Shown piece after piece: positions 4,487 to 62,652 of a stretch of DNA of 64,000 nt. Within the stretch, counting starts at the first letter, position 1, and every line of letters begins with the position of its first letter. The position numbers were made by a program, and so were the translations under genes. Under the pieces are notes generated by a model. The model was given only the letters and a program-made list of their open reading frames with translations. It had not been told where the DNA came from and did not search any database. The stretch lies in assembly GCA_035221665.1 (NCBI GenBank), contig CM069145.1:19034001-19098000 (forward strand), given 5' to 3'. This DNA comes from Okamejei kenojei. Taxonomy: Eukaryota.

Positions 4487-4615
4487 AGTCTGAAGAAGAG
4501 TCCTGACTTAAAAGATCACCTATCCATGTTCTCCAGAGATACTGTCTTACATGCTGAACCTAGTCCAGCAATTTGTGTCTTATTTTTGTAAGCAGCAATT
4601 GCAGTTCCTTGTTTC
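4487..4615 (+). mobile_element. Degenerate Penelope terminal-repeat (pLTR) fragment with hammerhead motif
   Basis: GAGTCTGAAGAAGAGTCCTGACTTAAAAGATCACC...TCCAGAGAT..., a decayed copy of the repeat seen ~20 times in the window. Confidence 0.65.
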
Positions 4616-4649
4616 TCCAAATAATGTTGATGTGGACTGGAACTTATAT

Positions 4650-5770
4650 TACACACTAGTTGACATTTGAGGATGATGGGTGAAGATTGGTGATGTTGTT
4701 GATAGCGAGCAGGGTCATCGTTAGTCATAGAATAATGTGCTGTTTGGTAAAATGGGTGAATAGCAGAGGGAATTTAATCTTGAAAAATGTGGTGAAGAAT
4801 TTTGGGGATAGTAAGAAGTCCTTTTCTTCTAGGACATGTACAATGAATAATAGACTTTACTTTAGAGATACAGAGTGGAAACAGGCTTACCAAGTCCACA
4901 CTGACCCGTACACTCTAGTAGGACAATGGGAGGTACTGACAAATAGGCAGACCTTAGTGTGCATGTCCAATGATCCCTGAAGGCAGCAGCACAGGAGGAA
5001 GGCATAAGGGATACTTGCTTTCATTATCCAGGACAGCGAATATTAGAGCAGAGCGGTTATGGTCAACTATATTCATCACAAATTATGCCACAAGAGTACA
5101 GAGCAGGTTAAGCGAGGTCCTGATTGAGGTACACAATATTATGGGGAGTATAGATGGGTTGGATAATGAAAACCATTTCCCATGCAAGGGCAGCACAGTA
5201 GCGCAGGGGTCGAGCTCCTGCCTTACAACACCAGGTTTGATCCTGACTACGGAGTGCTATCTGTACGGAGTTTGTCCGTTCTCCCCGTGCCCCGCGTAGG
5301 TTTTCACAAGATTTTTGGTTTCCTCCCAAGCTCCAAAGACGTATAGCTTTGTAGGTTAATTGGCTTGGTATAAATGTAAAATTGTCCCTAGTGTGTGTAG
5401 GGGAGTGTTAATGTGCAGGGATCCCTGGTCGGTACGGCCTCGGTGGGCTTGTTACCGCACTATATCTCTAAACTAAACTAAATTATCAGATCTGTTTATA
5501 ACCATAGGGCATTTAAGGTTAGGCAGAAAAACATAGAGAGGACACGAAAGCAATATTTTTCACTGAAAGATGGCTGAAATTTGGAACACAAGCCGAAGCG
5601 GGTGGTGGAATCAGGGATTCTCACAACCTTTACGAAGTATTTAGATAGGCACTTGCAATGCCAAGGCAAGGAAAGGTGGGTACCAAGTGTTAGAAACTAG
5701 GAGACATATAGATAAGCACAATAACCAGGATGGACCAGTGAACCAAAGTTCCTGTTTTGTGCTATATGAC
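4650..5770 (+). mobile_element. Old CR1 LINE 3' fragment interrupted by SINE insertions
   Basis: Decayed CR1 ORF2 end and 3'UTR (TATTTAGATAGGCAC; GTTCCTGTTTTGTGCTATATGACTATG tail). Confidence 0.6.
5188..5481 (+). mobile_element. HE1-type V-SINE
   Basis: tRNA-like head with decayed A/B boxes, V-domain (GGTTTCCTCCCA..TCCAAAGACGT..GTAGGTTAATTGG), CR1-like tail and (TAAAC)n. Confidence 0.85.
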
Positions 5771-7477
5771 TATGATGCCGTGAGTTTATAAGTATTTGCT
5801 TACCACCGGGATGTCCAGTGTTAAGTGTGGAAATGTGAATCGCGACTGGCGGGACTTGGACTAATTTCACAATTAACACAATATCGCCAGGAAATTATTG
5901 TTCACTTGATTTACACTGGGTATAAATCTACCTTGGATTTTGTAGCATTGAAAAAGAATAACAGCTTCTCAGCTAATATTTCCAAAATTGGATTGGAATA
6001 TTGCCAAGCAGAGTATTTTATTTTTTTGTAAAGAAATTAACACACAGATGGCTGAATTAGCCGTATTTCCTCATAATTCCTTTTCGTACAAGGATGTGTA
6101 CATTTGTGCCAAAATGTCACAGCTGGAAACAGTGTCGGAAGGCCAGGTTGTATTCAGGAGAGATTGTCCACGAGAGGCTTTTTTTTTTTGAGGTTTGGAA
6201 ATCTGCTTACACAGACGAATAAAATCCACTGATACCTCCTATTTTCTCGCACCTTTCTGAACAAAGTTCTGAGCCCTGTAAAGAACAGAAATGAATATTG
6301 TCTTGCGGAGGGCTCCATTACCCTGGCGTTATCCAGTTTCTAACTTGAATCCAAGGAATGAAAGTTTCTGGCATCAATTGAGGAACAACTACGTGTACAC
6401 CAGCTCTGCATCTTTCACAGACTGGTCTGACATTCCTTTTTCTACTAAGATGGTCTGCAGGGAATATAAGGATTTCAATATATAATAACATCTGGACCAG
6501 GCAATTAATGGAATTATAGTTTTTTTCATTCTTTTGCAGATTTTCCCACAAATATTATTTCATATTTTTGCATGATTGAGGACTGAATTATTTTCTTGCT
6601 TGTCAGCTTTGATTTGTAATTCTGTGAAAACATTTATTTTTGCATGTATAAAAAAAATAATAATTCTGATGTACAAATTTATCTTTGGATGGCATTAGGT
6701 AGAAATGTTTCATGAGATTGCATTGTAACCCATGGCATATTATACTCTCTGCTATTCTTTTGGAAATTGCCCTTACTGGTTCAATTATAACATGCCCAGC
6801 CTGAGGGCACAGTATTTGAAGTTGGGTACAAGGAAAGCTCATTGACAAACAGCTATCCCGGGCAACATGTTGAGAGCATGAATCTCATTTCTCGTGCAGC
6901 ATTCATTGTAATACATCTTTAAATAGCACTGAAATAATTCAGTAATGCAGGGGAGGAATTTTCTTGTATTTTGACCTGGGGGAGTTCCAATTCCCCACAT
7001 GCATTGGAAACAAATGGCATTACAATTCTGCTCACAGGGATTTCTTTTCCTATGTTTCACTGGGACTTCCAGAAGAGCAGACCATGGGATTGATCTCGAG
7101 TAGTCTCAAGTTAACTGGAGGAACTGCAGGGTGGGATCTTCTCTTCCTATTTGGCCACTTACTTGACATTGCTTGGAAAGATTTCACTATAACTCAATGC
7201 TGCGGTCCGCCCTTGGATCAACACATTCCTGGGAGCAGGCGAGCAACCTTAGATGAGATGTATCTACAATGTTATTTTTCAATATCCAATCGGAACCATC
7301 TGGCTGACAGCATTCAGCTGTGTTTCATTTTCCTGCACCGTTCTTTCTGCACCTTCCACTGAGGCTGTGGCCCTCCAAAGCACACAGCTCTCTGCTTTGA
7401 ATGCAATGTTATTGACCCTGATGTTGATACATGGTAACCCATTGTAATGGAGTAAACCCTACCAGTGAGGAGCTGTG

Positions 7478-7925
7478 AGTCACAGAACCTAGAGAAGCAG
7501 AGCACAGGAACAGGCCGTTTGGCCACTATGTCTGCGCCGATCATGATGCAAAGACCAACTCTTAGCTGCATGCACATAATCCATATCCCTATCCCCGGCA
7601 AATCCATGTCTCTATCCAAAAGTCTCTTAAATGCCACTATCATATCTGCCTCTACTACCAGCCCGGCAGCGTGTTCCAGGCACTCACCGCCCTCTGTGTA
7701 AAAAAATCTTGCCCTGCATATTTCCTTTAAACTTTACCCCTCTCACCTTAAAGCTATACCCTCTAATATTTGATATTTCCATCCTAGAAAAAAAGGTTTT
7801 GACTGTTTATCCCATCTATGCTTCTCATAATTTTATAGACTTCGGTCAGGTCTCCTTGCAACTTCTGGCAATCCAAGTCTGTCCAACCTCTCCCTGTACC
7901 TAAAGCTCCCAAATCTAGACATCAG
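7478..7925 (-). mobile_element. CR1 LINE 3' fragment
   Basis: Reverse complement has the CR1 3' UTR and ORF2 end (VAFKRLLDRDMD). Confidence 0.8.
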
Positions 7926-8902
7926 GAAGGGGTTAAACTGGTAAAACGTATGAAATCTGTGTGTGAACGCTCTGATTTAACAGCACCTGATTTAGGGGTG
8001 ACAGCAAAAGGTACATCAGAAAGGAGGGTGTGTGATTCTGCACACACCCTCCTTTCTGAGTGAGGCTGCTTTCTTTCCATTTTGAGAGCCATTTGTATCT
8101 ATTGGCTGCAAGTGGCGACTGCATGATCTAGCAAGTGTTCGCTTTGTCCTCGTGCCCTATCCCCTGTCACTGTCTGCCAGCCTCCACCTGACTAGTTGGT
8201 TACACTGTGATCTTTAACCTTGCTCCCATGTGAACTGTAGACCCATACACAACTGCCTCTTCAATCTCACCCTCTCCAGCGCTGCAGAATAAATCACTAT
8301 CCATCCCCTGTGCCTTGATCTTTTCCAACTGACGGGGCATCTCGACTGGCCCCGGCTGTGGTTCTCTACCCTTGGACATCCTGTCTAGGCAGAAAATGGG
8401 CTAAAGCAAAGGTTTTCAGGACTTTTGCGATCTTGGATTTTCCAGATGTCCCAGCCACAATCACTCCCTCCTCCCACTCCCCCCCCCCCTCACTTCCTTC
8501 CTCTTTGTAACTAGTGGGGCCGACCAGTCAGAGTAAATCTGATCTGAGTACTTTAGGCTCCCAAGGAACGCCACTGAGGAATATGAGATGTCCTTTTTAT
8601 CCAGTTCATATTACAACTATTAGTACCCTTGTGGCCAAATTCAGTAATTCAGCTGAGTTCCCAAGGGTTTTATCACTTTGCCAATCATGACTAATTATTT
8701 ATTTGTCAACTATGGTATATCAAGATCAAAGCACGGAAACAGACTGAAACAGTGTGTGATGACTGATTGCAGTGTCAGGTTTAATCAGCCTTCCCCCTTC
8801 TCCTGCTGTGACACCTTTTGAGCAGTTTACAAAACTTTTTCAAGAACTGGGCCTGGCTAAAAACTTGAAAGATCACTGCCCGCAGCTGTTTATGTAAGGG
8901 AA

Positions 8903-9180
8903 AGATAGGCACAAAGTGCTGGAGTAACTTAACGGGTAGGCAGCAGAAAAAGCATAGGCGATATTTCTTCAGACTGAATAGAGAGGTGCAGGGGGGAGGG
9001 TTGGACAGTGTATTTCCCCCCACCCCCCACCCTCCACCTCTGCATTCAATCCGACGAGGGGTTCCGACCCGAAACGTCACCTATTCTTATTCCCCAGAGA
9101 TGCTGCCTGACCCACTATTACTCCAGCACTTTGTGACTATCTTCAGTATAAACCAGCATCTGCAGTTCTTTCCTACACAT
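8903..9180. mobile_element. Inverted pair of Penelope pLTR/hammerhead fragments
   Basis: Minus copy 8903-8978 and plus copy 9047-9180 (CCGACGAGGGGTTCCGACCCGAAACGTCACC), with G-rich/C-rich complementary spacer. Confidence 0.75.
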
Positions 9181-12602: not shown

Positions 12603-14121
12603 AGCTGTGCACTTTGGAGGGCTCCAGCCCCTGTGGAAGGAGCAGAAAGAATGGTGCAGGAAAATAAACCACAGCATAATGCGACCAGCCAAATGATTCT
12701 GATTGGATATCTATTATATTTCATGTCCTAACGATAGTAAGAACCGTAATTGTGAAAGGCATGTTTTGCGAGTACCCACAGAAAAATCTAAATTTAAAAT
12801 ATGAAATGGCCAGCAGTGAGGGCCCAGTTTAGCTACATCTACAGCCATTTTATATTTCTCTGGCTGAATAAATGAAGGAAGCAAAAGATGTTTCGACAGA
12901 TTTTTCTTTGGATGTGCTTTTGAAGACTGGAAAATAGTTGGCAGTTAAATAAACTCTCCTGCACAAGAATAAAGATCTTTTTGCAATAAATAACTTCTAA
13001 AAGGTTTGAGTGAGCAAACACTGTCTCAGCCCACACACAATATCTGTTACCATTAATATATTTTTGCACAGCATCACTTTTCCAACAAAAGATGAATCAT
13101 GGCAGAGAATCACCTGCCCCATGTCTCCTTCCCCAAGTCTAGACAGAGGCTATATTGTGACTGGCCTCGTGGAGTTGAGAGAGAAAGCTAAGGTTACTGA
13201 GGTTATGAAAGAGTCTTGTGCCATTTGTGGGAGGTTGTCTCCGTGTGCAGATTTTTATACCAAATGAAAACAGCATCAATGTCCAAAATTCACAATATAA
13301 AATAAAACACGAGGTGTCAATATCAGGTGTTCAGTAATATAAACTGTAACTTGATATTCTAGAGTACAGTGCTCCCACAAGCATGGAAATATGAGCTTAA
13401 AGGCTCCGTGCATTTCCAGCATTACCCTTTGCTTCTGTCATGTTACTGTTGCCTGCATTCTCATTACTACAATAATGATAAAAAAGATCCAACTGGGTTT
13501 GCATAGCACACAGGAGATGTGGGCCCCATTCTTCCATAATAATTACTAAATCATGATAAGGGGCTGTTTAGAAGGCCCTGCCAAAAGCCATTGTATTTAA
13601 ATTCATATGCACATACCTGACGGCACAGCACAAATGAATTTGTGGCTCTTGAGTTGTTTATTTATGATTCTTTAAAGGGATATAAAGCAGTTTATCAACA
13701 ATTAAATTAAAGCTAACAGTTGTGTGCAGGAAGTGCTTAATTTAATCCATTTGGCAGAAATATCAACTTGGGATTTGTTTTTTTCTACAAAGGAATACGT
13801 TTTACACCAAAAAAATATCGTTGGTTTGTTTTGCAGATGTAACGTGACATTTTAAAATTTAGTTTTGACTCCTAATTTATTCGTATAGATTTTGTGAAGG
13901 AATAATTAACATTGGGCCAAGTCAAGTTGACTGATGGCTGGTGACAGCATTGTCTGATTTCCATGTGCAGATAGCCCAATGCAGAAGAAGGAAAGGTTCA
14001 GTAGATCAAACCTTCAGGCACTTACCACTTGTTCTGCCACTTGACTCCCCATTGAGCCGAGCAGTGGAGCACTGCCGTGTTTACCAGCGGCATTGACTGC
14101 ATTTTGTATTGCCCCTCTGTC

Positions 14122-14757
14122 TGAGGGCATGTGAGTACAAGAGCAGGGAGGTACTACTGCAGTTGTACAGGGTCTTGGTGAGGCCATACCTGGAGTATTG
14201 CATACAGTTTTGGTCTCCTAATCTGAGGAAAGACATTCTTGCCATAGAGGGAGTACAGAGAAGGTTCACCAGACTGATTCCTGGGATGGCAGGACTTCCA
14301 TATGAAGAAAGACTGGATAGACTTGGCTTGTACTCGCTGGAATTTAGAAGATTGAGGGGTGATCTCATAGAGACTTATGAAATTCTTAAGGGGTTGGACA
14401 GGCTTGAGATACAGGAAGATTGTTTCCCGATGTTGGGGAAGTCCAGAACAAGGGGTACTGTTTAAGGATAAGGGGAAGTCTTTTTAGGACCGAGATGAGA
14501 ATCGTTTTTCACACAGAGGAGTGGTGAATCTGTGGAATTCTCTGCCACAGAAGGTAGTTGAGGCCAGTTTGTTGGCCATATTTAAGAGGGAGTTGGATGT
14601 GGCCCTTGTGGCTGAAGGGATCAGGGGGTATGGAGAGAAGGCAGGTACAGGATACTGAGTTGGATGATCGGCCATGATCATATTGAATGGCGGTGCAGGC
14701 TCGAAGGGCCGAATGGCCTGCTCCTGCACCTAATTTCTATGTTTCTATGTTTCTATG
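14122..14757 (+). mobile_element. Young CR1/HER1 LINE 3' fragment
   Basis: EYKSREVLLQLYRVLVRPYLEYCIQFWSPNLRKDILAIEGVQRRFTRLIPGM; ends in (TTTCTATG)n. Confidence 0.95.
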
Positions 14758-14769
14758 AACAGCTCTACT

Positions 14770-16789: not shown

Positions 16790-17200
16790 AGCAAACTTCA
16801 ACAGGATATTTGATTCAGATAACATACAAAACATAAATTATACATAAATCATAGACCACCGTCAAAAGAAAAAGAATGTTCAAAAACAAGATATAAAACA
16901 CAATTAGAAAACAAAACAATTCCTTTATCGGTAGAGCACGAGGTGGCCCATAGTGTTCCTCTGCTAAGTTAGGATTAGGTGTGTTGGAGGGAACTGCAGA
17001 TGCTCATTTACACCAAATATAGACACAAAATGCTGGAGTAACTCAGTGGGACAGGCAGCATCTCTGGGGAGAAGGAGTGAGTGACGTTTTGGAATCCAAT
17101 GGTAACAGTGAGATGAGGGCTTGGTCCAGATGGTGGGGATCATTGATAAGATAAGTGCTACCATCTTGAGGCAGTGCTTCATGGAGATGCTTTCTGGAGG
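16790..17200 (-). mobile_element. Rex1/Babar 3' fragment interrupted by a Penelope pLTR (16978-17092)
   Basis: 3'UTR similar to 43340-43560; KHCLKM(A/V)ALI..PHH motif; pLTR GCTGGAGTAACTCAGTGGGACAGGCAGCATCTC...GACGTTTT inside. Confidence 0.6.
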
Positions 17201-17659: not shown

Positions 17660-18200
17660 TTGCATCCCCTCTCTCTCCGTCCCTATACCCTCCAATTCGT
17701 TGTTTACAAGTTTCACTGTCATCCTTCTGAGTTTCACTTTATCACTTGTGTTTATCACTTCCCAACCAGCCAACAATGAACCAAATGTGGGCCCATCTTT
17801 CCTTGATCATCTTGGCCTGCTTGATTTGACCAATATTTGCCCCCAACCAATGTCTTTCATTTGTTCTATGTACCTTATCATATGTCTTGTTTCCCTCTCC
17901 CCTGACTCTAAGAAGGGTCTCGACCCAAAACGCATCTATTCCTTTTCTCCAGAGATGCTGTCTGAGTTACTCCAGCTGATTGTGTCTATCTTTAATTGCA
18001 CTTATTTGGCTGTAAAGGATAAGACATAATTTGCATATACCTTGTACCTTGCCTCAGTCCGAAGAAGGGTCTAGACCCGAAATGTCTCCCATTCCTTCTA
18101 TCCAGATGATGCTGCCTTTTGCACTGATTTTCTCTCTCCAGCATATTGGGTCCTCTCTTTCATTATAAACTCATCATCTGCATTCCCTTCCAACACAAAC
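17660..18200 (+). mobile_element. Two Penelope 3' / pLTR fragments with hammerhead motifs (~17905 and ~18056)
   Basis: CTAAGAAGGGTCTCGACCCAAAACG and CAGTCCGAAGAAGGGTCTAGACCCGAAATGTC, each followed by the conserved TCCAGA..ATGCTG tail. Confidence 0.75.
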
Positions 18201-32690: not shown

Positions 32691-32809
32691 AATATTGTAC
32701 ACTACTTGATTCAGTGACTCCTCTTTGACAGATGGGAAAACCTTGTCCCCAGCTTTGTCAACTGATGATGTAATCGAGTTTTTCAATTGCACTGAGCAGG
32801 GAATTAGAA

Positions 32810-41753: not shown

Positions 41754-41884
41754 CTTCAGTCTGAAGAAGGGTCTCGACATGAAACTTCACCTATTCCTTC
41801 CCTCCATATATGCTGCCTCACCCGCTGAGTTTCTCCAGCATTTTTGTCTACCTTCGATTTTTCCAGCATCTGCAGTTCTTTCTT
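41754..41884 (+). mobile_element. Solo Penelope pLTR/hammerhead insertion
   Basis: CAGTCTGAAGAAGGGTCTCGAC...; 15-bp TSD AAACCTTCTGA(A/G)TTG at 41739-41753 and 41885-41899. Confidence 0.85.
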
Positions 41885-42720
41885 AAACCTTCTGAGTTGG
41901 AAGTTTATGGGTTCTGGTCAAATATGTGTTGCTCCATTGCTCCTAGAGCAGTACAGCACGGAAACAAGCCCTTTGGCCACCTTGTCCATGCCAAATAAGT
42001 TGCCGTACTGGGATGGTCACATTTGCCTGCATTTGACATATAGCCCTCTAAACCCTTCCTATTTATATGTCTGTCCAAATGTCCTTTAGAAAGTTGGCAA
42101 ATTTAAAGTCCTGCCCATGCCCCAGAGCCACTGCACAGACAGCTCTGGTGACTGGAGGCAAGGGTTATGTGCTCAGAATACTGAGATGATATTCTAGGAA
42201 CTCACTTCTGCAAAATGAAGCTGCTAACCCTGTTGCATTAAAGTAGTTTCCCAGGTTAAGCTAATGACATGTTCTCAAACAAGAGCATTTTTTAAACAGA
42301 CAAAAACTGTGGAAGAAATAAGTTGTCTCTTCTGTTGTTAAGAGAATAAGATGTGTGAGCCTAATACGAAAGTCTCCTTCACTTTCAGTAATAGGCACCA
42401 GAACTGAGATTTCTCAATCCTGCCAGGATCTCTTTGATTTTATCACTCTGCTGTATAGATGATGAAGCCTGACATCTGTAACATCAAGTGGCTATTCAGA
42501 ATGATGCTCTACGGAGATCTCAGAACAATTCCTGCCAGCTTTCTGATACTACCCTGTGGCTTTCGATGACTTTGACAGCCATTAAATTAAACACATGCTG
42601 CGTGGCCTTGGCATTGAAATGAATCATCATCTGCTTACTCATCAAAAAATTCTTATGTTAACCAGATATCATCACTTTGCCAGAAAATAATTATGACAGA
42701 CCAAACCTACTGATCTAAAT

Positions 42721-42916
42721 CTGTAGGAAGGAATCGCAGATGCTGGTTTAAACCGAAGATCAACACAAAAAGCTGGAGTAACTCAGCGGGACAGCCAGTA
42801 TCCTTGGAGAGGAGTATCTTTGGGTCTGAAGAAGGTCTCGACCCGAAACATCACCCATTCCTTCTTTCCAGAGATGCTGCCTGTCCCGCTGAGTTACTCC
42901 AGCTTTTTGTGTCTAT
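42721..42916. mobile_element. Fold-back Penelope pLTR/hammerhead insertion
   Basis: Minus + plus copies; exact 14-bp TSD CTACTGATCTAAAT at 42707-42720 and 42917-42930. Confidence 0.88.
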
Positions 42917-43269
42917 CTACTGATCTAAATATCAAGTCTGCAAATGCTGGTGTTTCTGCCCATGCTACTATGTAACAATGCTAGGAGGCATTTGGTTTAA
43001 ACCGAGATCAACACAAAAAGCTGGAGTAACTCAGCGGGACAGCTGCCTCTACTCCCATCTCTTGCTTCTGTTAAATATCTGTGATAATGACACAAGCAGA
43101 GCAGTATGTCAATATGATCAGTAATTGTTGCAAGGTATACCTATTCTGCAGGGGGCTTGTGCATGAGCACAGTAACGCACAATTATGTTTTATTGGATTC
43201 TGGTGTAGTTAATGACATCCTCAGGGCTAATTGCCATTTTTTCTCTTTCTGTTTGCAATACGAAACCAG

Positions 43270-44285
43270 GACAATTATTTCGTCAAGTATTTATTGCTGC
43301 AAGTATGGTGATATATAGGTATAATAAATCATTTCATGCTGCAGCATCACAGTTACATGGACACAGACAACACACAGAAATATAAATTATACATAAATAA
43401 TGCATATGTTTTAGATGGTAGAGAAAAGAAAAAGACAGTGCAAAAGCACGAGGCATTCATGTAAAAACACAATTAGAAAACACAACCACAGTGGTGTAAG
43501 AAGTGGTCTGCCATGTTCCATTGCTGAGATTATGGGGTTTGCAGGTTAGTTCAAGAACCTGCTGGTTGTAGGAACTGGGAGTAGGGAATGCAGTCCTTAC
43601 AGGAAGCAGGGTGGGAAGAAATGTAGTCCAGATAGCCATGGGAGTCAGTTGGTTTATAGTAGATGTTGGTCAGTAGTCTGTTACCTGCGATGGAGATAGT
43701 GAGGTCTTGAAACGGTAGGGAGATGTGAGAAATGGTCCAGGTGAAATTGAGTGCCGGATGGAAGTTAGTGGTGAAATCGATGAAGTCAGTGAGTTAGGAC
43801 CGTGAGTCATGAGGTAGCATCAATGTAGGACAGGTCATCCGAAATGTTAATAACCAGAAATTTAAAGTTGCTGAATCTCTCCAGAATGAAAACTGGAATA
43901 TGGTCTCCCAGATTCGTTTTTTCAGAAGTCAACATTAAATTCCTTGTTGGCTTCGACCCATGTGGTTGTTGTTGTTTTTCTGTGTTGTTGTTGCATCACC
44001 ACTGAACATGTTTTCCATCTCTCTCCTGTACGCTGATTCATATACACCAGTGATTTGGCCAACAACAGTGATGTCATCGGCAGAGTTGTCGATGACTTTG
44101 AAGCTGTTCATAGCCACACAGTCATGGTTGTAATGAGAGTGGAGCAAGGGGTTAGGCATGCGGTCCTGAGGTGGGCCTGTGTTGATGGTCAGTGAGGAGG
44201 AGATGTTATTTCCGAACTGCACCACTTAAGGTCTGCCAACGAGGAAGTCATGGATCCAGTTGCAAGTTGTGGATCAGGCCACATA
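43270..44285 (-). mobile_element. Rex1/Babar LINE fragments with a Penelope RT fragment inside (~43575-43800)
   Basis: INTGPPQDRMPNPLLHSHYNHDCVA...SADDITVVGQI (~TGAPQGCVLSPLL..FADD); 43575-43800 matches 33800-34020. Confidence 0.8.
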
Positions 44286-46773: not shown

Positions 46774-47437
46774 AGGGCATGTCCCACTTGGCCATCATCC
46801 GCGTGTCATTTACGCGGCCTGCTAGCGTGTGGGTAGCGTGCGGGCAGCACGTGGGTAGCGCGGGACGGGCGCATGGAGTGGTGTGGAGTGACGTGGAGGA
46901 GTGTGGACTTCGTCCTGCACGAAATCTTCGCGCGCCACCGGCCTGTTGCGTAACTGACGGCCAAAGTGGGACAGGCCCAAGACACTGGCGCGTCGCAACG
47001 TCTCACCTCCAACAACAGCAGAAGCAGGCAAACGATCGCCGAGCTTGGCCTGGGGCACACGGCCGTTGCGGATCCGGATCCGCCCCCACTCCTACTCCCA
47101 AAGCGGGGCCAAGACGATTGCAGATAGACACAAAATGCTGGAGTAACTCAGCGGGACCGGCAGCATCTCTGGAGAGAAGCAATGGGTGACGTTTCGGGTC
47201 AAGACCCTTCTTCAGGCTGAAGAAGATTCTCGACCCGAAACATCATCCATTCCTTTTCTCCAGAGATGCTGCCGGTCCCGCTGAGTTACTCCTGCATTTT
47301 GTGTCTATCTTCAAATGACGTCATGCGCTCCAGACGGCTGTGCAGACGCATGATGACGCTCGCAACCGTCACGCGACCGTTGCGCGTCAGTCACTACCGG
47401 CCTGCCGGGTAAATGACGGCCAAATGGGACAGGCCCT
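46774..47437. mobile_element. PIF/Harbinger MITE carrying an internal second right end and a pLTR palindrome
   Basis: TAA TSD; TIRs AGGGCATGTCCCACTTGGCC / GGCCAAATGGGACAGGCCCT; extra right end at ~46936-46978. Confidence 0.85.
47122..47310. mobile_element. Fold-back Penelope pLTR/hammerhead palindrome
   Basis: ~90-bp arms meeting at CTTCTTCAGGCTGAAGAAG. Confidence 0.88.
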
Positions 47438-47850: not shown

Positions 47851-50177
47851 GATGCAACAGCCACCAAAACCCACAGGGTATATTACAACTACGGGGGATT
47901 TTTTTCCCATCAATTAGTTTGCGGACAACTTTATTAATGGATGCCTCAGTACCATTTTTGCTGGTGGGCATCCATTGCAGAAACCACTCAGTTATTGGAA
48001 CACATGTGGGCAATGAGCAAATACATGCCTGTCTGTAAAGAACTGATTCCCATAGAGCCTTCAGACATGGTAACTGGACCTGTCTGAAGAGTAATATATT
48101 CACAGGCTCAGGACTTCAAAGTCTAACAGAACAGAGCAATATGACATTGTATGACCTTCAGACATACTGTTATGCTTGGATTTATCTGTCGTTTTAGTAG
48201 TGACTCAATTCCCTGACCATTGTATCATTTGACATACCATATGGCGGATTTGGGCCATATTTTTAAATTTGCTGCACAATTGTCATGGAGCTGTCACCCA
48301 GCATCTCTACTCATGAAGGAAGAGCCTCATCTTTTTATGGTGTAATTGAAGAAACAGTTGCTCTGCGATTTGTCAACATGGCTGACATGCTGAATGTAAA
48401 CAGGCATTAAGGGACTCATCTTCCATTAAGGCCTTAGATTACAAATGCAGGCCTTTTCATCAATGGATGCTCTTCATAAGGAGAGTAGAAATATGTAGTT
48501 TGTAAAGCAGAGCATGTGACTCTCTCCATGATCACACCATGACCAGCAGCAAGCTCACCTGTGAGCAGGCAGAAGAGATGACCTGATGCGTAATGTTACT
48601 TCATATGCTTCTGTGTGAGTTGGTCCCTGCTCCAATACTGAAATAGCCTGCCACTGTGTTTCTGCAGCTCTTGATGAATGGAAGTTAATTTAAAGAACTC
48701 TGACCTCTGTACAGGGAATCTCCACTCTGAAGGTCTAAACAATGTTCAAATGCTGAAATATATTGGCCCATTGTTCAATATTGATGCTGGCTACTCACCA
48801 TTACATGTTATGCAGTTAAGAATGATGCACATTATTATGTATTGAGCAATTTGACATGCAATGGGTGGAAGAAATTGTAACCATTTCGTGCATGAGAACT
48901 ACGGTCAATCAACAATTAAAAAAAAACCTTTGTACCAATTGACTATTTCAAGTTATGCAATGGGAAAGAACCTGTAAGTGATAGTGACAGACGCTGTACG
49001 TTCTACTCAGCTCACAATTTGATGTGATCAATGTAGGATCGCATGTAATAATGTTTGAGTACCACTTTCTCATCTCTCCTTTCATCTTTAAATCTCCATG
49101 TAGCAGCTGTGGCATCAATGAAACTTTTTCCAGTTACGTGCTCTGCTGTGGTGCCACGAACATTTTGATGGTAAAGTGTCATCCAATGTCCAGTAGCAAA
49201 CAGGATTTTCCTCAAGTATTCACATTATATTAGCAGCCTTTCTTAGTGAGGCATCATGTGACATGTTGCAATGGGAGTTGTTACCATAATGTGCCTGATT
49301 GTGTGTCTCTGCACGTGGAGCAACTTCTTTAGTGGTATCTTGTTCCTAGTGACCTAAGGCAACTTTTTTTGGCATTGCTTCATTTTGGACTCTTCTCAAT
49401 AGAGAAAACTATTTGAGCGATCCCTTTCCAGGTTATTCCTGCTCTCCCAGGGAAACCTCCAGGTTCTCTTAAAACTCAGGGTCTTCCTTGTAGCATTTAT
49501 CTTACCTATGAACATTTCTTTGACCCACTATGCCAATCTGGGAACTAATTTCCTTTCTCCTCTATCTTTCCCCTGCAGTCTCCCTCTCCTTAGTGTGTGT
49601 TGCTGAGGGCTATCAACAGCGGGATTGCTGAGGTCTGTCTTTCGGAGCTGTAACTCTTCTCTCATGGGTGCCCAGTAAATTTATAACACCAGCCCCAAAA
49701 TTAATATAGTTTCACCAAGAACTTAACAAGTTGCTTTTGAACTCTTGTGTAAAAAATACTCTAATGCTGCTGCAAACTAGTTTTATGATTTTTATGTGAG
49801 GGTGTCATGGAGCCCTGTAGTACAGAAAGAGGCCGAAACATCATCCACCTTTTTTCACCAGAGATGCTGCTTGACCCGCTGAGTTACATCATTACTCTGT
49901 GTCTACCTTTGGCCCAACATGCCCATGCTGACCATCTCCAAGGTACCTCTTTAAACCTTTCATACCATATGTGTCCAAACGTCTTTTAATTTAGTGCATC
50001 AAAATTCAGAGTCCCATCATTGATCGCATCAAAAATAGGTGCAATGGCATTTCTAGGATGTTGTGTTTAAAATACAGATTTGCAGGAAAATTACTGGAGA
50101 TTTGCTGGAGAAATTGATTTTCAAAATAGTTATTTCTACATGTTCCAAAATATGTATATCAAGAAAGCAGTCTTCAA

Positions 50178-50368
50178 TAGACACAAACTACTGGATTAAC
50201 TCAGCGGGTCAGTCAGCATCTCTGGCGAGATGGAATGGGTGACGTTTCGGGGTGAGACCCTTCCTCACCCATTCCTCCTCTCCAGAGATGCTGCCTGTCC
50301 CGCTGAGTTACTCCAGCATTTTGTGTCTACCATCAGTTTAAACCAGCATCTGCAGTTCCTTCCTTCAC
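50178..50368. mobile_element. Fold-back Penelope pLTR/hammerhead pair
   Basis: Minus copy to GACGTTTCGGGGTGAGACCCTTCC, then plus copy from TCACCCATTCC. Confidence 0.85.
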
Positions 50369-51585
50369 AAGCAATTGTCAATATTGAATAAGCTCTTGGT
50401 GATAATGATCAGACCTTTCTGTGCCGAAGTTATTGTAGGCAGAGCTCTGGGTGTGAGTTCACATTGTATTTACTACTGCACATACAGAACATGTGATAAC
50501 ACTGAGCTGTGGGTTTCACATGGAAAATTACACATGCTTCTTCCTGGTGCTCACGCCACATTCAATTTCCTACACAGACTCATAGAAGATAAAACTTCCA
50601 TAGACCTACAAAAATACCCAGGGCCACACTATGCAGAAAAAAACATTTGATGAAACTTTTTGAGAGAGTCAAAATAAATGCTGCATTTGAGACATTTCAC
50701 AGCCTAACATGAATTGGCCCAATACTTGCAGACAGATGAATCCAATTTATTTTTTACAACTGCTCATGACTTGGTCTCAGAAATTGAATTATCTTGATGG
50801 AAGGATGTGTTTGCTTAAATATTACAAAATCATTGCTAATTGTCCATAATATATTTTATGTTACCAGAAGACATTTACTCTGAGATCTATGCAACATAGA
50901 ATCACAGAGTACATACTAAATCTTCATGAAACACCAGATGACCTGGCAGAGAGTTCGGTCTGTCACACATGGTTCTGCGAACCAGATCATTCATGCCAAA
51001 TACGAGCATTACCCATCTTCCAGGAACTCCCTCAGTATGTTCCGTCAACTTTATGAGAGCAAACCATGGGGCAACAATAGATTTGTTAAACTCTAGGTTT
51101 TCAATGTTCTTAATCTTATCCTTCAGTAAAAGAAAGGTTGTGGAAAGCCTTCTGCCTCAGATCACTGTTTGGAATGTAGGGAAGGGAGGAAGAGATGATC
51201 TGCCTGGGAATGGGTACAGGGGAGTCGACAAAATGCTTTGAGAGGAGAGGTGGGGGGATAGTCCTTTGTGGAGAGGTTGAAAGAGAGCTAAAAATAACAT
51301 ATGGGAATTGTTATGAGGAATTTTGATAGATTGCTGAGCTCCACTCAAGGTACAGGAAGGATGGGGCACAATTGCAGAAGAATATCAGAAATGTGTGAAG
51401 TTAGTTAGTTTGAAGAGTTATGACTCCAGAGGAGAAAATCTTGCTTTTTACTGGTGTACACGCAATGTTCTGGCCTACTTTCAATCGCTTGATTACTCAG
51501 CCTGGGAAACTTGAATGAAGATGTTATATTGAACGCATTGCTAAATTCTGAGCCAAGAAACCTCACCGAAATAGTTACATTTGAT

Positions 51586-51784
51586 TTAAAGAAGGAACTG
51601 CAGATGCTGGAGAATCGAGGGTACACAAAAAGCTGGAGAAACTCAGCGGGTGCAGCAACATATAAGGAGCGAAGGAGATAGGCGACGTTTCGGGTCGAAA
51701 CCCTTCGACCCGAAACGTCGCCTATCTCCTTCGCTCCTTAGATGCTGCTGCACCCGCTGAGTTTCTCCAGCTTTTTGTGTACCC
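51586..51784. mobile_element. Young fold-back Penelope pLTR/hammerhead palindrome
   Basis: ~78-bp near-perfect arms meeting at GGGTCGAAACCCTTCGACCC; exact 14-bp TSD TAGTTACATTTGAT at 51572-51585 and 51785-51798. Confidence 0.92.
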
Positions 51785-51874
51785 TAGTTACATTTGATGC
51801 TGGCTTTCTGGCCAGGATGTTCAGTAAGTAAGGGAGTGATTGTGTAAATATGTAAGGGAAGAAATAAAATTAAG

Positions 51875-52050
51875 AGACACAAAGTGCTGGAGTAATTCAG
51901 CGAGTTAGGCAGCATCTCCAGAAAACATTGATAGGTGACATCTTGGGTCGGAACCCTTCTTCAGACTCAAAACATTGCCCATCCATGCTTATCCCCCTGA
52001 GTTACTCTGGTACTTTTTTTGTAAAGACTTCTGCAGTTCGTTATCTCCGG
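51875..52050. mobile_element. Older fold-back Penelope pLTR pair
   Basis: Minus copy to CCCTTCTTCAGACT then decayed plus copy. Confidence 0.7.
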
Positions 52051-56669: not shown

Positions 56670-57203
56670 CTTAGTTTAGTTTAATGTAGAGATACAGCAC
56701 AGAAACAGGCCATTTGTCCCACCGAGTCAACGTACACCAGTTCTATGTTATCCCACTTTCGCATCCTACACACAGGGTCAATTTACAGAAGCCAATTAAC
56801 CTACAAACCTGCATGCCTTTGGAATGTGGGAGGAAACCGGAGCACCCAGAGAAAACACATGCAGTCAGCTGAAGGACGTGCAAACTCCCCACAGACAGCA
56901 CCCCAGGTCAGGATCAAACCCCAGCCTCTGGTGCTGTGATACAATACGATACGATAGAACTTTATTTATCCCAGGAGGGAAATTGCCAACAGTCATTAAA
57001 CACAAAATACATGAAACTAAAATGACAAGTAGAAAGGATTGGGGATGTGCAAAGATTGGGGGGGGGGGGGGTCAGTCTACCCCACGACAGAAGGGGGAGG
57101 AGATGCACAGTTTGATAGCCACAGGGAAGAAAGATCTTCTGTGGCGTTCTGTACTGCATCTTGGTGAGGCTGTAGTTCTCCTGCTGCACCAATGCTACCC
57201 CTA
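56670..57203 (-). mobile_element. HE1-type V-SINE interrupted by a Rex1-type LINE 3' end (~56938-57165)
   Basis: SINE body 56670-56938 resumes at ~57167 (AGGCTGTAGTTCTCCTGCTGCACC); insert has (GATAC)n tail and SFFPVAIKL motif on minus strand. Confidence 0.75.
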
Positions 57204-57624
57204 TAGCTTGATAGTCCCATGAGAGTGTAAATTTAGTAAGGGCCACATGGGCAGCAAGTCCAATCGAGCAGATCCCCTGACCCAATACTTACCACACAAT
57301 ACCGATGGCCAGGTACAAGTCATTCAGTGAATAATAAGGTTTCTGTTATTTAGATAGGGTGTCACTGTCTTGCAGTTATCCTCCTGAGAGATGAGGCATA
57401 AGAGTTTTATAGTTGTATTAATTTGAGTCTTTTAATGTTAATTACAGGCAGGCTAATTCTGGAATTTAACTAAAAATTATTTTTTGTAATCTAATTGGCA
57501 GAAATTCAAGGAGGTTACTTCACTTCAATCACCGAATCATCCAATTTCTTTAAAAAATCCTAAGAACTTAGTATTTTTGTCTTTTCAAATGAGACAAAAC
57601 TAATTACTTTTGATATTTATTGAA

Positions 57625-57915
57625 AGATGGAAATAAGCCCTGCAGCCCACTGAGTCCACGCTTACTAGCGATCATCCATTCACGCCAGTACTATGGAATC
57701 CACTTTTGCATCCATTTCCTACACACTAGGGGTAATTTACAGAGGCCAATTAACCTATAAACCTGCATGTCTTTAGGATATGGGAGGAAACAGCAGCACT
57801 TGGCAAAAATCCACACAGTCACAGGGAGAACGTGCAAACTCTACATAGAGAGCCACTGTGTGCAGGATCCTGGCGCGTGAGGCAGTTGCTCTACCAGCTG
57901 CGCCACTGTGCCATC
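57625..57915 (-). mobile_element. HE1-type V-SINE
   Basis: Antisense V-domain (CCAATTAACCTA, GGGAGGAAAC) and head GGCACAGTGGCGCAGCTGGTAGAGC. Confidence 0.8.
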
Positions 57916-58519
57916 CTCTTTATTTCAAAAGAGAGCTGTTGTTTTTCTATCTGTATATATTTTTTTCGACTTAAGAAATTAAGTTGCAGAGGTAGGACAA
58001 GTTTGGAGCAAACTCAGGCTGGTGGGACTAGTGTAGCTGGATCATGTTGGCCGGTGTGGGGATGTTGGGCCAAAGGCCCTGTTTCCACACTGTATCACTC
58101 TGTGACTCTAGGTACATGAGTCTAAGTAGTTGTGGATGATTTGCTTCCATTCCAGTTCCTTGGCCTCTGAGGTGGTTGATGCAAATGTTGAATCTGCTGT
58201 CTCTGCCATCGATGGGACAGAAGGTGCTTGTTGGGGTGGGCAGATGGAGTTGTTGGGGAAGTGGTGCTACTACACCACCATTTCTACTGGGTCTCATAGA
58301 TTTGAACTTCTCAGTATCACACTTACCATTTCTCTCTTATGAGCAGTCAAATATCAGGGTTTCCCATAAATCAGTGAGGATTTTCCATTATTTTCAAGGT
58401 TGCTTTAAGAATAGTCTTGAGTATTTTCCACCGTCCACCTTCCATGAATTGCCTTCCATGAACGGAATAGAGTGTCCATTTGGGGTGTCTGGCGAAGTCT
58501 TGGAGCTCGGCCTCTGAAG

Positions 58520-58790: not shown

Positions 58791-60271
58791 CCAATATATA
58801 TATTGCTGCTTTGAACCTAGCAGTTTAGTTTTTCTGATCAAGTTTCTGCAATGGTCTGTAATAATTATTTTTGAAGTTACACTTTGAAGATGTGTTACAC
58901 TTTGAAGATGTGTAGAAAGTGTAAATCCTTTCTAGAAGTCTAGAGTCAACAAACTAACCATTGGCGTATCTAATATCTGCTTTCCTATTCAGCGGAGCGC
59001 ACTTTAGCTCAGAGGAATCGTAGGCTTGTATGTACTATCTGGCTTTTATATTGGTCTCAGGAAACAGTACCTGGAAAAGAACATCATAACAGTTGTCTTG
59101 AGGTCCGCAGAGTATGAATGTGGACGGTAGGAAAGGTATATCAAAAGCATGTGAAACGGCACCATTTCTATCATTCTTTGTTGCACCAAATGTATTATTC
59201 CTGCTGTTTCAACCTTTGCTGCTCTTCCTGCAAACTTACTATCCTAGCTGATCTGAGCTGGGGACAAGTGTCTGATTTTGCCTAGCCTAAAGGACCCATG
59301 AGGTTCAGTTTCCCCGGTGGTTGTGGGAGTAGTCTGTCTGCGGCATTCCGTTTCAGGGGCAGTCCTTGGGAAGAGGTAGGTTTTCCTTCTTTGGTAGCTG
59401 ATTTCCCAAGTGACCTATGAAAGCTGTCACCGCAAATCCTTCAAGCAAAACAGTGTTTTTGCAGGCTTTGTATTCAGTTGCTGTCTTTATATTAGAGAGG
59501 GGTGCTGTCTGCATCCTATTCCAAAGTCTGAAACCACCTGATTGTTTTGGCTCATATTTTTTTAATTTAAGTTTAGGTTGTGACATTTTGGAGAAGCGTT
59601 TTCTCCAAAAACTGTCAATGTAATATCCTCTCACTCCATCTGACTGAAATTTAACAATAGTTATATTTCAGGGCAGAACACAAGCAGCAGAATGTATCTT
59701 GAAACAGATCCATCTGCAGACTTTAGTGAAAGCACACATGGTGTACCAAATTCAAGATATAAACCATTTAAACCTCTGAATATTTTTTTCAGTAATGGGC
59801 CCTATTATAGCGAGAATTCCCTTGTAAGTTTTACAATAACTCATAGAGCACTGTCCTTTTTGGAAATGGATGAAAACTAATTCAGTGACCGACCCTTCAC
59901 CCACTTAAATTTACCCTGCTTACATTCTCATAGAGAGCATTTGTAATATCAGGGTGCTTTAATACACAGTGTCTATTCACCACTCATTCTGAGGGCTTAA
60001 AATAGTGAACAACTGAGATATTATTTTAAGAGTAGAGTTATGCAGCAGCTGATGGGACGTTGAATAACATCTGTTTGACCAACTGTTCGCAGATTTGAAT
60101 TCCATGGCTGCATATTTTGCTCACTTTAGGAGGTAACCCATGGTATTGATTGATTAACATCCCAAATGATGGAATTTTGATCCATGTTGGGCCAGGGAGC
60201 AGTTTATAGAACGTAAATGGATAGTTCCTGATAGTTGTCCACATGATCAATTGTTCTGATCTCCAGCAAGT

Positions 60272-60590
60272 GGGCACGGTGCAGCAGGAGGTAATGCAAA
60301 GCAGCATCGATGTGAGTTCAATCCTGACCTCTGGTGTTGTCCACGTGAAGTTTACACATTCTCCTCGTGACCGTGTGGGTTTCCCTTGGAAGCCCTGGTC
60401 TCTTCCCACATCCCAAAGTTGGGTGGTGAATTAGCTATTTTAAATTATCCCTGGTGTAAGAGGGTGGTGGGAAAAACTGGAGGGAGCTGATGGCTTTGTG
60501 AGAGAGAATGTGCTGCAGAAAATAACCGAAGGACTGGGATTGGCGGGATTGATCCCATGGGTGGAATGGCCTCCAAAGCCATGAGAAAAT
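60272..60590 (+). mobile_element. Old V-SINE (HE1-related)
   Basis: GGGCACGGTGCAGC head, GAGTTCAATCCTGACCTC B box, CCCACATCCCAAAG V-domain. Confidence 0.7.
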
Positions 60591-61321
60591 ATGTGGTTTT
60601 TCGAGGTAAAAATGGAAGCGAACTGAGAATCAGAAGATGCTATCACTATGACTGTAAGTTTTTACTGTAATTAACTGATCCAGTTCATGAGAATAGGTTT
60701 TTTGTTCGCAGAATTGGAAAATTACCACATTGCATCAGTTGAGCTCTTTCCAATTCTTTAGACATCCAGAATAGTGCAGCTTTGTGAGCAATACCAGTAA
60801 AGTTCTCAGCTCAGTTTGGATTCTTCCTGCCTTTTTTTTTTGCTAACACCCCACTGGTTTATAATTTGTTACAGCGATCTGGCTCCTAAACTTCAATCAC
60901 CAGAATTCCCTCCCACCCCCCCACCCCCCTCCCATTTCATAATGCAGGCATAATTTAGTTCCTTGGAGTATAAATCTCCCCTGTGAACAAGCTTCACTGA
61001 GTAGAACTCTAAATTCCCATTTATTAAATTATGAAGCTTCACAAAAACTGAAGATTATAGTTAATTGATTCCTTTATTTCAACTTTATTTATATCTTACT
61101 TAAAATCTGGTTTTAGTTATACTGAATGACATGGTTTGACTGGTAAACCAAAATAAAAATAAATGCTTAGAGGATTAAATAAACGTTGCTGCCACAACAA
61201 CAGCATTAATTAATCTCCAGAAATGACATTTTTGCTTTAAGAATTTCTAACCATCTTATGTATTTGAGAAATATAGAACATTAACACATTAGAACACTAA
61301 AGAAACTACCCGATAGTTAAT

Positions 61322-61650
61322 AGGATGGCAGAGTGCCACAGTGATTAGCACTGTTCCCTCACACCTCCAGAAACCAGGCTTTAATCTCGAGCTTCGATCC
61401 TGTTTACACACTCACCCTCCCGCTGCTTGGGTTTGTCCCAGTTTATTCCCACATCCCAAAGGCATGGTTGTTGGTAAGTTAATTGGCTACTGCAAATTAC
61501 CCCTAGTGCAGGTGGGCCACAAGAGAATAGGTACTGGGGTGTGGAGCAGTTGATGGGGATGTGAGAGGAAAAATGGGCTTAGTGTAGATGAGAGCTTGAA
61601 GGTCAGCTTGGACATGGTGAGATGAAGGTCCCGTATGACCGTGTAATGTA
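61322..61650 (+). mobile_element. Old V-SINE (HE1-related)
   Basis: CCCACATCCCAAAGGCATG..GTTAATTGGCTACTGCAAATTACCCCTAGTG V-domain. Confidence 0.65.
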
Positions 61651-62399
61651 TGCTGTGGATGGATCCATGCATTTGTCAGGTTAAATATACAGTGTGTTGA
61701 GCTTTACATACTTAGTTACTTTTTCTGACTGGCAACCTAGAGTCATCTTTGTAAACATATTAAGCGTAACTGGTACATTGCTTATAATTACATAGTTTAT
61801 GGGGATGAGAATGTAATTTGAATGACTCTGTAATTTGTCCTCCATCTCTGCAGTCATATTGTCCAGTCAGTTGATATATTCCTTGTATGCAAGATCACTA
61901 TTTTTGCAATGTATGCATGAAAAATATATGAATAGATGAGTTTATTTGCAAGTCTAAACCTAAAATGAAATATGTTTCTGAATCGTGTTGAAGTGAGCAG
62001 GGAAATGTCAGTGTTTTGTTTTCCTCTCTTCCCTCTTCCTCATGATTATAATCTTTCTTTCCCTCTTTTATTTAGTTTTTCTAGGATTTGGCATTCAATT
62101 ATTCATTTTAACTCACATCCCTCTGCCTACCTCAGTCTAAATTTGTCAAATTTATTAGTTGGGAGAAAGACTCATGTCTTTCTGCGGTTTTTTCATGTTC
62201 GCAAAGGTTCCAAATCCCCTGTCGTGAATCCTTCAATGTACTGGATGTCCTGTCACCACAGTGTTCCAATTGAAAAGTTCATCATAAACCAAAACGTTAC
62301 GAATAATTCACAGGAATGGGACCCTGCCACAATCTGGGAATGATCTGTACAAGTTAACCAAGATCAAGGGTGCAATACCCAGGCATGCTTTACCAGTCT

Positions 62400-62652
62400 G
62401 ACTGTCTCCGAGTACATTTTAACTCTGTTTGCCTTGTTGTTACCTTCTCCCGGCTAACATTGATTTATTCTATATTTTCCTTGATCTGCATCTCCGTTGA
62501 CCTCCGTTAACACCTTACACTTCCTTATCTATGTATCTCCCTCTCCCCTGACATCAGTCTGAAGAAAGGTCTTGACCCAAAACGTCACCCATTCCTTCTC
62601 TCCAAAGATGCTGCCTGTCCCACTGAGTTACTCCAGCATTTTGTGTCTGTCT
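62400..62652 (+). mobile_element. Penelope 3' end with pLTR/hammerhead
   Basis: Pyrimidine-rich 3'UTR then CATCAGTCTGAAGAAAGGTCTTGACCCAAAACGTCACCC. Confidence 0.8.

Follow-up and report, generated by a model that had tools for sequence, protein, structure and literature searches.

Copies of a short unit carrying a hammerhead motif are scattered through the window (the whole 64-kb stretch of DNA analyzed here), and they raise the question of whether this ribozyme cassette moves by itself or is left behind by the Penelope-like element (PLE) whose ends it also forms. The preliminary description of this DNA took the first view and regarded the cassette as a non-autonomous, retrozyme- or SINE-like mobile unit. 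That reading, with the units as a new ribozyme-based mobile element, does not hold. Instead of a separate ribozyme parasite, the repeats likely represent side products of insertion by the parent element itself, and on balance we regard them as decaying stubs of the Penelope-like hammerhead end, probably generated when reverse transcriptase (RT) starts inside the 5' leader and runs off uncleaved RNA. The motif and the insertion architecture of these units are already published.

A decaying hammerhead unit in many copies

All 21 loci previously listed aligned to the hammerhead unit, and a profile HMM trained on 20 natural copies detected 30 arms in the window and 411 in 1.004 Mb of the genome, with none in the reversed control, which bears out the common unit proposed for about 20 loci. 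Extrapolation gave approximately 1.1 million arms genome-wide. The list was correct in every entry but lacked two arms, at 8880-8975 and 42993-43045. Two motif searches had been suggested earlier. The descriptor-type search agreed with this result, since a generic minimal-hammerhead descriptor found 46 matches in 1.004 Mb, each from this unit family, against none in reversed sequence and 0-1 in three shuffles. The Rfam scan gave no hammerhead model match at E ≤ 5, only 13 chance-level matches, and the PDB sequence search returned no useful match.

The core contained the CUGANGA and GAAA boxes, an NUH triplet, helix II with the G10.1-C11.1 pair, an extra nucleotide after A9, and a palindromic 15.2-16.2, supporting the earlier identification as the minimal type I hammerhead of Penelope-like pseudo-LTRs (pLTRs). 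The statement that most loci retain a core at variable decay needed correction: both boxes, the triplet and at least three helix II pairs were kept in only 6 of the 30 window arms, and of the 198 arms in the wider sample whose core aligned completely, 44 were intact, with 4/4 helix II pairs. Decay was fastest at CpG sites, and the catalytic G12 was hit in 61 of the 198. Four subfamilies were compared for their commonest letter, which differed at 3 of 28 columns in the core versus 21 of 68 downstream (p = 0.04). The covariation anticipated for helix II did not appear: pair-keeping double changes numbered 6, 3, 1, and 0 in the 198 arms, with 4.2, 1.1, 2.5, and 0.7 expected, indicating no compensatory change, in a test that is weak since dead copies decay without selection. 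Five window monomers folded no better than shuffles, and the hammerhead was never the minimum-energy structure.

Solo copies on the plus strand lay at 4486-4613 (tailed, beginning 3 nt before C3, core decayed), 18055-18196 (tailed), 30369-30493 (tail-less, core intact, with its 14-bp target-site duplication, TSD), 39340-39473 (tailed, beginning 3 nt before C3), 41739-41899 (tailed, of the same subfamily as the element at 32807, with its 15-bp TSD), and 49833-49918 (5' end within the core, at +19). On the minus strand, they lay at 16981-17092 (tailed, 5' end also at +19) and 31422-31543 (tailed), together with the short fragment at 42993-43045. Two tail-less plus-strand copies with approximate starts were linked to UTR sequence, at 17660-17996 (about 246 nt of UTR) and 62393-62650 (about 162 nt). 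Head-to-head pairs accounted for 9 of the 21 listed loci, eight by HMM and the one at 51875 by eye. They comprised 8880-9178 (minus arm 8880-8975 and plus arm 9047-9178, separated by a 72-nt UTR-like spacer); 26564-26761 (tailed minus arm and short tail-less arm, 11-bp TSD included); 30888-31035 (minus arm eroded); an old pair at 37546-37757; 42707-42930 (tailed minus arm and tail-less plus arm, 14-bp TSD included); 47118-47314 (two tail-less arms centered on a TCAG-N-CTGA palindrome); 50176-50369 (tail-less minus arm and tailed plus arm); 51572-51798 (tailed and tail-less arms joined inside helix II, 14-bp TSD included); and 51873-52035 (tail-less minus arm and a degenerate tailed plus arm, the latter seen by eye). 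The five TSDs reported earlier as 11-15 bp stood, at 26564/26751 (11 bp, exact), 30369/30480 (14 bp, one mismatch), 41739/41885 (15 bp, one mismatch), and 42707/42917 and 51572/51785 (14 bp each, exact). Three of these five insertions (26575, 42721, and 51586), described as free-standing cassettes, are inverted pairs and not single units.

The parent element and the ends of its copies

The Penelope-like copy at 32807-34403, on the minus strand, spans RT motif A to GIY-YIG, the 3' UTR and a unit, with a second unit joined upstream. That the unit forms both ends was confirmed; however, this is a 5'-truncated copy and not a full pLTR-ORF-pLTR, because the upstream unit (34308-34403, core intact, beginning about 5 nt before C3) joins mid-RT. 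The 3' unit (32807-32902) is tail-less, with helix II partly deleted. Between it and the ORF, a pyrimidine-rich 3' UTR (32899-33005) opens with a GT that overlaps the stop codon and closes with CAG right before the hammerhead, a candidate intron-like or initiator-like segment. In near-full-length copies, the unit and its tail lead directly into the 5' region of the ORF, whose putative start lies downstream of the tail, and one complete pLTR-ORF-pLTR copy had a unit spacing of about 3.68 kb. The unit thus closes ORF-bearing copies at the 3' end and, in full-length ones, also serves as the 5' leader.

There were 542 homologues at E ≤ 1e-20 and, among the matches listed, most carried PF00078 and some PF01541. 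The DKG and YIDD motifs were present in the translations, a GIY-YIG match was found in the window ORF and in a second copy, L008 (E about 0.001, below Pfam's cut-off), and both showed a CX4CxxC linker (33082-33624 in the window). A CX2-5CxxC linker before the GIY-YIG motif defines the Neptune/Nematis clades (PMC8557442), and by this motif the parent is assigned as an abundant Neptune/Nematis-type EN+ PLE. The strict Penelope/Poseidon clade did not fit, as it requires the absence of this linker. A single ORF with RT and C-terminal GIY-YIG endonuclease, a partial-tandem pLTR, an optional tail, and an inverted 5' copy, as in EN+ PLEs, were all found.

The 3' ends clustered at two sites about 35 nt apart, which corresponds to the known 'tail', and did so in ORF-linked, solo, and inverted copies alike. 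The 5' ends concentrated 0-9 nt before the hammerhead core. Among the non-inverted arms (n = 216), 78 of 153 ended in the 10 nt before C3, a rate of 0.051 per nt (0.026 per nt if the next bin is merged), and the rate in the UTR was 0.003-0.005 per nt. As had been expected in the preliminary description, this clustering at the edge of the hammerhead means that the solos do not form a continuous ladder of 5' truncations. Ordinary truncation at random points, of which solos would be the shortest products, would account for the flat rate upstream of -20 and for the 5' ends that fall inside the unit, but it is largely refuted by a core-edge spike five- to tenfold above the UTR rate that recurs in young exact copies and in a related organism, and we consider it very improbable. 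In RNA reads of that organism, the same -3 position was the top heterogeneous 5' junction (874 reads, agreement 0.33). A single raw RNA run of the relative showed near-equal depth on both unit strands and no site where many molecules begin or end; its library was of fragmented poly(A) RNA, so that start or cleavage sites are not decidable from it. The ribozyme cut site, considered as a source of solo 5' ends, was rejected, as no excess was seen there in the 216 non-inverted arms (0.005 per nt).

Long leader-bearing copies behaved differently at this edge. Of 14 that reached the core, 3 stopped at -4 to +1, versus 81 of 156 short copies (p = 0.048), and the other 11 ran on into the UTR, indicating that many templates extend upstream of the core. 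About half of the young copies likewise extended into the UTR. At locus L305, two successive starts at -4 occurred within one insertion. Among 22 non-C solos, 13 had G at -4, an enrichment (p = 0.002); a cap-derived extra G was considered and set aside as only suggestive, with four TSD-resolved solos having no extra base and some extra letters resembling a tiny second arm.

The 5' boundary could also be a barrier in a longer RNA, with the copies again by-products: the UTR would be an intron, and RT would halt at its 3' splice site, the lariat branch point, or bound splicing factors. In the long copies inspected, the UTR started with GT overlapping the stop codon, was pyrimidine-rich, and had YAG adjoining the core, often preceded within a few nucleotides by a CTRAC-like word; the 3' end of the D. 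virilis Penelope intron has been mapped to the 5' end of helix I (PMC4209133), and a leaky barrier would explain the half of copies reading through. A barrier should, nevertheless, halt long and short copies equally, contrary to the 3/14 and 81/156 observed. Moreover, splicing of the UTR or to host exons was rejected with 0 spliced-type against 101 unspliced genomic copies in 1.65 Mb, and no donor-to-acceptor joint was among the best 15 joints in either RNA read set (13 and 106 weaker joints lay beyond these). We therefore regard the intron barrier as unlikely.

Inverted pairs and the origin of the stubs

Among the scorable inverted pairs, 62 of 72 consisted of one tailed and one tail-less arm (Fisher p = 2.4e-10), and the tail-less arm extended further 5' in 36 pairs versus 14. 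TSDs flanked 27 of 72 inverted pairs and 15 of 86 solos, against a null of 0.3%. Clean 3' junctions showed microhomology of at least 2 nt in 20 of 39 cases, versus 19% expected. Distant TSDs were found for 4 of 40 solos without a near one; inverted arms lie within two of these insertions, part of a Penelope ORF within a third, and 721 nt of unrelated upstream sequence within the TSD of the fourth (L247), suggesting that units in host transcripts can sometimes be mobilized.

Instead of two primers, a single cDNA or an antisense template that folded back at a palindrome and primed itself could account for the inverted arm. Several junctions do fall on palindromes (TCAG-N-CTGA, helix II), and fold-back was proposed for rotifer elements (PMC3846280). 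However, fold-back of one strand does not predict the tailed and tail-less arms of the 62 pairs, both outer ends adjoin the direct TSD, and many junctions carry filler or no palindrome, which makes this origin quite improbable.

Amplification of the cassette by the Penelope enzyme as a non-autonomous SINE- or retrozyme-like unit, transcribed from solos, would fit the roughly 10:1 excess of short copies over ORF-bearing pieces (411 arms versus 36 alignment pieces extending beyond the unit), the defined 5' ends and TSDs, and published trans mobilization by pLTRs (PMC3846280), one case of which L247 resembles. In the largest subfamily, solos were also slightly less diverged (0.09 vs 0.12). Against this, clustering of 281 arms at K = 3-5 gave subfamilies that each mixed UTR-linked, solo, and inverted copies at similar divergence, with no solo-only subfamily and, hence, no lineage apart from the autonomous partner; at K = 6, the oldest cluster had 10 solos and no UTR-linked copy, and the solo to UTR-linked ratio varied among subfamilies (p about 0.001). 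No array of the unit was present in the window, and same-strand neighbors within 300 nt (32 in 1.004 Mb) were irregular, mostly separate or nested insertions, and not tandem repeats of complete hammerhead units. No 5' ends marked the cut site, where cleavage-processed RNAs would place them; the core decays, G12 included; inverted junctions vary between loci, so that they are not copies of a single master; and solos, which share their two 3' sites with ORF-bearing copies, reach only as far as the RT start sites and so lack the downstream leader needed by the Poseidon protein in vitro (PMC11167929). We find a cassette amplified on its own improbable. The two 3' sites, the core-edge 5' ends, the tailed and tail-less pairs, and the mixed subfamilies all indicate that the units are neither retrozymes nor an independent SINE, and the missing tandem arrays and helix II covariation lead to the same conclusion.

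Most likely, the copies are twin-primed run-off cDNAs templated by the 5' end of uncleaved parent RNA; the positions at which RT started and stopped are likely preserved in their ends. In work on the Poseidon clade in vitro, Penelope RT initiated internally at two tail-defining sites and extended both strands, and was modeled as a dimer; RNA beyond the start sites was required, hammerhead cleavage was not, and no primer-RNA homology was reported (PMC11167929). Here, RT would start in the 5' leader of the parent RNA, at a distance of about 95 or 130 nt beyond the hammerhead core, and run off the likely 5' end of uncleaved RNA, which would lie 3-8 nt ahead of the core. The target would be cut with a stagger of about 9-16 bp, providing one primer on each strand; of these, one would be extended from the near site and its partner from the tail site. 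Head-to-head joining of the two cDNAs would take place at the cDNA ends or at short core palindromes; a solo would remain if the second arm were lost or very short. For copies extending into the UTR, the template may have been tandem or circular RNA, or RT may have jumped to the 3' unit. We infer that a Pol II start at YYA(+1)GT just before the core sets the 5' boundary, the least certain of these steps. Several observations weigh against this scheme: many long and young copies run on into the UTR, subfamilies differ in their solo to UTR-linked ratio, solos of the largest subfamily are slightly less diverged, the oldest K = 6 cluster has no UTR-linked copy, L247 carries unrelated sequence, and the in vitro data come from the Poseidon clade and report no primer-RNA homology.

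A bolder and rather doubtful version holds that the mRNA starts three to six nucleotides before the hammerhead and that every insertion begins as a twin-primed 'strong-stop' cDNA at the 5' leader, one enzyme subunit per start site, with long copies needing a 3'-unit jump or a circular template. This would place the ribozyme at the cap, where cleavage would take off nothing but the capped head. If so, a Penelope replication intermediate would have left its fossil record in about one million stubs and 240,000 hairpins, and one scheme would explain the pLTR, the tail, and the inverted copy.

Comparison with known systems

The stubs bear on how PLEs form pseudo-LTRs, tails, and inverted copies and on the role of the hammerhead, and they supply testable in vivo numbers, with integrated templates uncleaved, stopping at the 5' edge of the core, and start sites used one per strand. 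Extrapolation also puts the number of short inverted repeats in the genome at about 240,000, and double-stranded RNA could arise from them.

The core resembles the PLE pLTR hammerheads of Cervera and de la Pena (2014, PMC4209133) in its conserved boxes, the extra nucleotide between A9 and G10.1, the G10.1-C11.1 pair, and the palindromic 15.2-16.2. As there, the motifs are mostly single and dispersed, which that paper attributes to probably truncated elements, and it likewise notes close opposite-strand pairs; the sections used here give no account of solo end positions. The Schistosoma motifs have a helix II of 7-8 bp and a helix I of 4-5 bp, whereas here helix II has 4 bp and helix I only 2 bp. 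The known architecture of EN+ PLE insertions comprises a pLTR, an inverted 5'-truncated copy, and a 30-40 bp tail (PMC3846280; PMC8557442), and ours share their head-to-head arms, tail at one end, TSDs of similar length, partial tandems, and palindromes at junctions. Unlike those described, most here are reduced to the terminal 100-135 nt, and the counted tail asymmetry (62/72) and the preferred 5'-end position go beyond them. Non-LTR retrozymes (PMC7229834; bioRxiv 10.64898/2026.07.22.740005) likewise have a type I hammerhead, a pLTR origin, long TSDs, and dispersed monomers; however, they need at least two tandem hammerhead units giving circular RNA, and here neighboring arms were head-to-head in 88 cases versus same-strand in 15, with no arrays. 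PAc, a Poseidon element of Anolis (Frangieh et al. 2024, PMC11167929), differs in clade from the present element with its CX4CxxC linker of Neptune/Nematis, in the short microhomology seen here at junctions, and in having its ORF start inside the hammerhead, the putative start here being downstream of the tail. It likewise has a tail defined by two internal sites of RT initiation, a hammerhead at the start of the leader, and uncleaved RNA as the template.

The hammerhead unit and its copies

The unit, a terminal repeat of about 100-135 nt from a Penelope-like element that bears a hammerhead core, was found by alignment at all 21 loci of the preliminary description. The five target-site duplications (TSDs) claimed there were as stated; the reading of those insertions as single cassettes failed for 3/5, which proved to be head-to-head pairs of arms (an arm being one copy of the unit), an arrangement seen at 9/21 listed loci. 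An HMM built from 20 natural copies detected 411 arms in 1.004 Mb, taken as four blocks, one including the window, and 0 in the reversed-sequence control; extrapolated to the 2.76-Gb genome, this sample gives ~1.1 million arms. A structure-only descriptor gave 46 matches, and 46/46 were this unit, with 0-1 in controls. The cores, said to be retained at most loci, were mostly dead: intact ones were found in only 6/30 window arms and in 44/198 fully aligned arms of the wider sample, and loss was fastest at CpG sites, G12 among them. The feature is real and very abundant: stubs of Penelope-like element ends that carry a minimal hammerhead. The window also holds LINE-RT-like ORF pieces at 14097-14465 (+) and 24889-25431 (-), which we take to resemble the C-terminal part of CR1-type LINE reverse transcriptase, and copies of another short dispersed repeat at about 27081-27612, 56800-57222, 57754-58119 and 60038-60430, presumably akin to cartilaginous-fish SINEs.

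Parent element and independence of the unit

At 32807-34403 (-) lies a copy of the element that is truncated at its 5' end and has its upstream unit joined to mid-RT. The closest named homologues of the element's protein, among the matches listed, were from sharks and rays (60-66% identity). A CX2-5CxxC linker before GIY-YIG separates Neptune/Nematis from Penelope/Poseidon (PMC8557442), and the CX4CxxC found here marks the parent as a putative Neptune/Nematis rather than Penelope/Poseidon element. Further Penelope-like ORF fragments lie at 53-718 (-), 43567-43828 (-), 62825-63044 (-) and 63425-64000 (+), the last two in an inverted arrangement running past the window end. Where a copy is near-full-length, its leading unit and the tail, the ~35 nt between two 3' end sites, continue straight into the 5' region of the ORF, and the units of one complete copy are ~3.68 kb apart; therefore, the unit is both leader and 3' end. 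In the leaders of four sampled loci (L152, L156, L158 and L139), a 13-nt word closing the tail-less site reappears immediately downstream of the tail; these leaders also have a donor-like AAG/GTATG that overlaps the probable start codon. Over the ORF leader at L152:1981-2290, RNA reads of a related organism were strongly one-stranded (~45 vs 2), whether sense or antisense. The unit is common to several families with unrelated 3' UTRs, and subfamilies differed in 3/28 core columns vs 21/68 columns after the core (p=0.04), a constancy that fits selection on active parents.

The proposal that the cassette moves alone as a retrozyme/SINE-like unit did not hold up. Among 281 clustered arms, every subfamily mixed UTR-linked copies (extending upstream into the parent's 3' UTR), solos (single short copies) and inverted pairs, with similar divergence within a subfamily (about 0.09, 0.11, 0.16 and 0.19-0.26 at K=4), and an independent SINE was rejected on this basis. 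Class ratios were unequal among subfamilies (p about 0.001). The oldest of the clusters at K=6 was without UTR-linked copies, which may reflect poorer detection. Retrozyme identity was rejected because no tandem arrays of the unit were found in the window or the 1.004-Mb sample. Helix II showed no excess of compensatory changes. Such motifs have been described as mostly single, probably truncated elements, and the one hammerhead tested gave no cleavage as a monomer and weak cleavage as a dimer (Cervera and de la Pena, PMC4209133). One solo, L247:723-1600 (oriented), carries 721 nt of unrelated sequence upstream of the unit within a >20-bp TSD; it is likely a capture in trans, indicating that mobilisation in trans can occur. 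Short derivatives with the order unit, 300-400 nt leader, unit were observed at L305:1368-1923 and L293:1373-1986 (both oriented), L294, L295 and L284; both units of L305 start at -4, counted from core position C3, and 13 RNA reads of the relative had a similar joint.

Ends of the copies

Close neighbours were head-to-head in 88 cases, same-strand in 15 and tail-to-tail in 9. After 16/88 head-to-head pairs with an eroded end were left out, 72 were scored, and 62/72 combined a tailed and a tail-less arm, with no tail in 8 and two tails in 2 (p=2.4e-10). The arm reaching further 5' was the tail-less one in 36 pairs vs 14, and the junctions differed between loci. In every copy class, 3' ends fell at ~+90-105 and ~+120-135 from C3; the difference is the published tail, whose presence at one end has been described qualitatively (PMC3846280; PMC8557442) and which corresponds to a pair of internal sites where the RT starts in vitro (PMC11167929). 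TSDs of 9-16 bp surrounded 27/72 inverted pairs and 15/86 solos, with a null of 0.3%. Target-element microhomology of 2-4 nt was present at 20/39 junctions clean enough to use, out of 54, vs 19% expected. A literature search of limited coverage returned neither a count of one-tail asymmetry nor a twin-priming model, and nothing describing the 5' pile-up.

The analysis of 5' ends took in 216 non-inverted arms whose 3' end is intact, and 78/153 reaching the core edge ended within 10 nt before C3. Since arms beginning just inside the core are assigned by upstream extension, the fair figure merges two bins, giving 81/156 ends over 20 nt, or 0.026/nt, against 0.003-0.005/nt in the UTR, at most 0.009/nt inside the unit and 0.005/nt at the cut site. 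In 95 solos, base frequencies fell most steeply from -3 to -4. Genome-wide, the base before the exact 40-mer starting at -3 was C in 2402 cases, G in 356, T in 285 and A in 254, and about half of the copies extend into a UTR by arithmetic on 30 loci weighted per class; the G excess at -4 is only suggestive of a copied cap. In the relative's RNA reads, -3 was again the top heterogeneous junction, and these junctions were read as genomic, transcribed in passing, because depth was near-equal on both strands. Counter to one fixed start, 11/14 leader-bearing long copies reaching the core entered the UTR. The letters before the core would also be compatible with a 3' splice site at the end of a GT-AG UTR, making the UTR an intron: in the inspected families (32899-33005 (-) and long copies) GT overlaps the stop codon at the start of the 3' UTR and YAG precedes the hammerhead at its end; however, no spliced copies were found.

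Proposed mechanism and known systems

YYAGT before the core matches the initiator consensus. The 5' boundary would most simply be a Pol II start, favoured because this motif suits that role and the Penelope pLTR contains an internal, TATA-less promoter (PMC2377424). Most likely, the element's enzyme would nick the two strands ~9-16 bp apart, and the leader of uncleaved RNA would be primed twice, once per start site. The cDNAs would extend to the RNA 5' boundary or end sooner and then join head to head, a solo representing a pair with one arm lost or extremely short. What the analysis adds is the statistics of the copy ends, above all the one-tail rule, which make the replication model testable.

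The standard dimer-and-circle model is summarised in PMC6765202. A 5'-end hammerhead serving translation has been reported for RNA viruses (PMC13725137), and by analogy one might speculate that the hammerhead, if it lies at the 5' end of the element's mRNA, aids translation. Retrozymes require arrays (PMC7229834; bioRxiv 10.64898/2026.07.22.740005), in contrast to the unit described here. Whereas the in vitro study reports no microhomology (PMC11167929), 20/39 scored junctions in this genome carry it.
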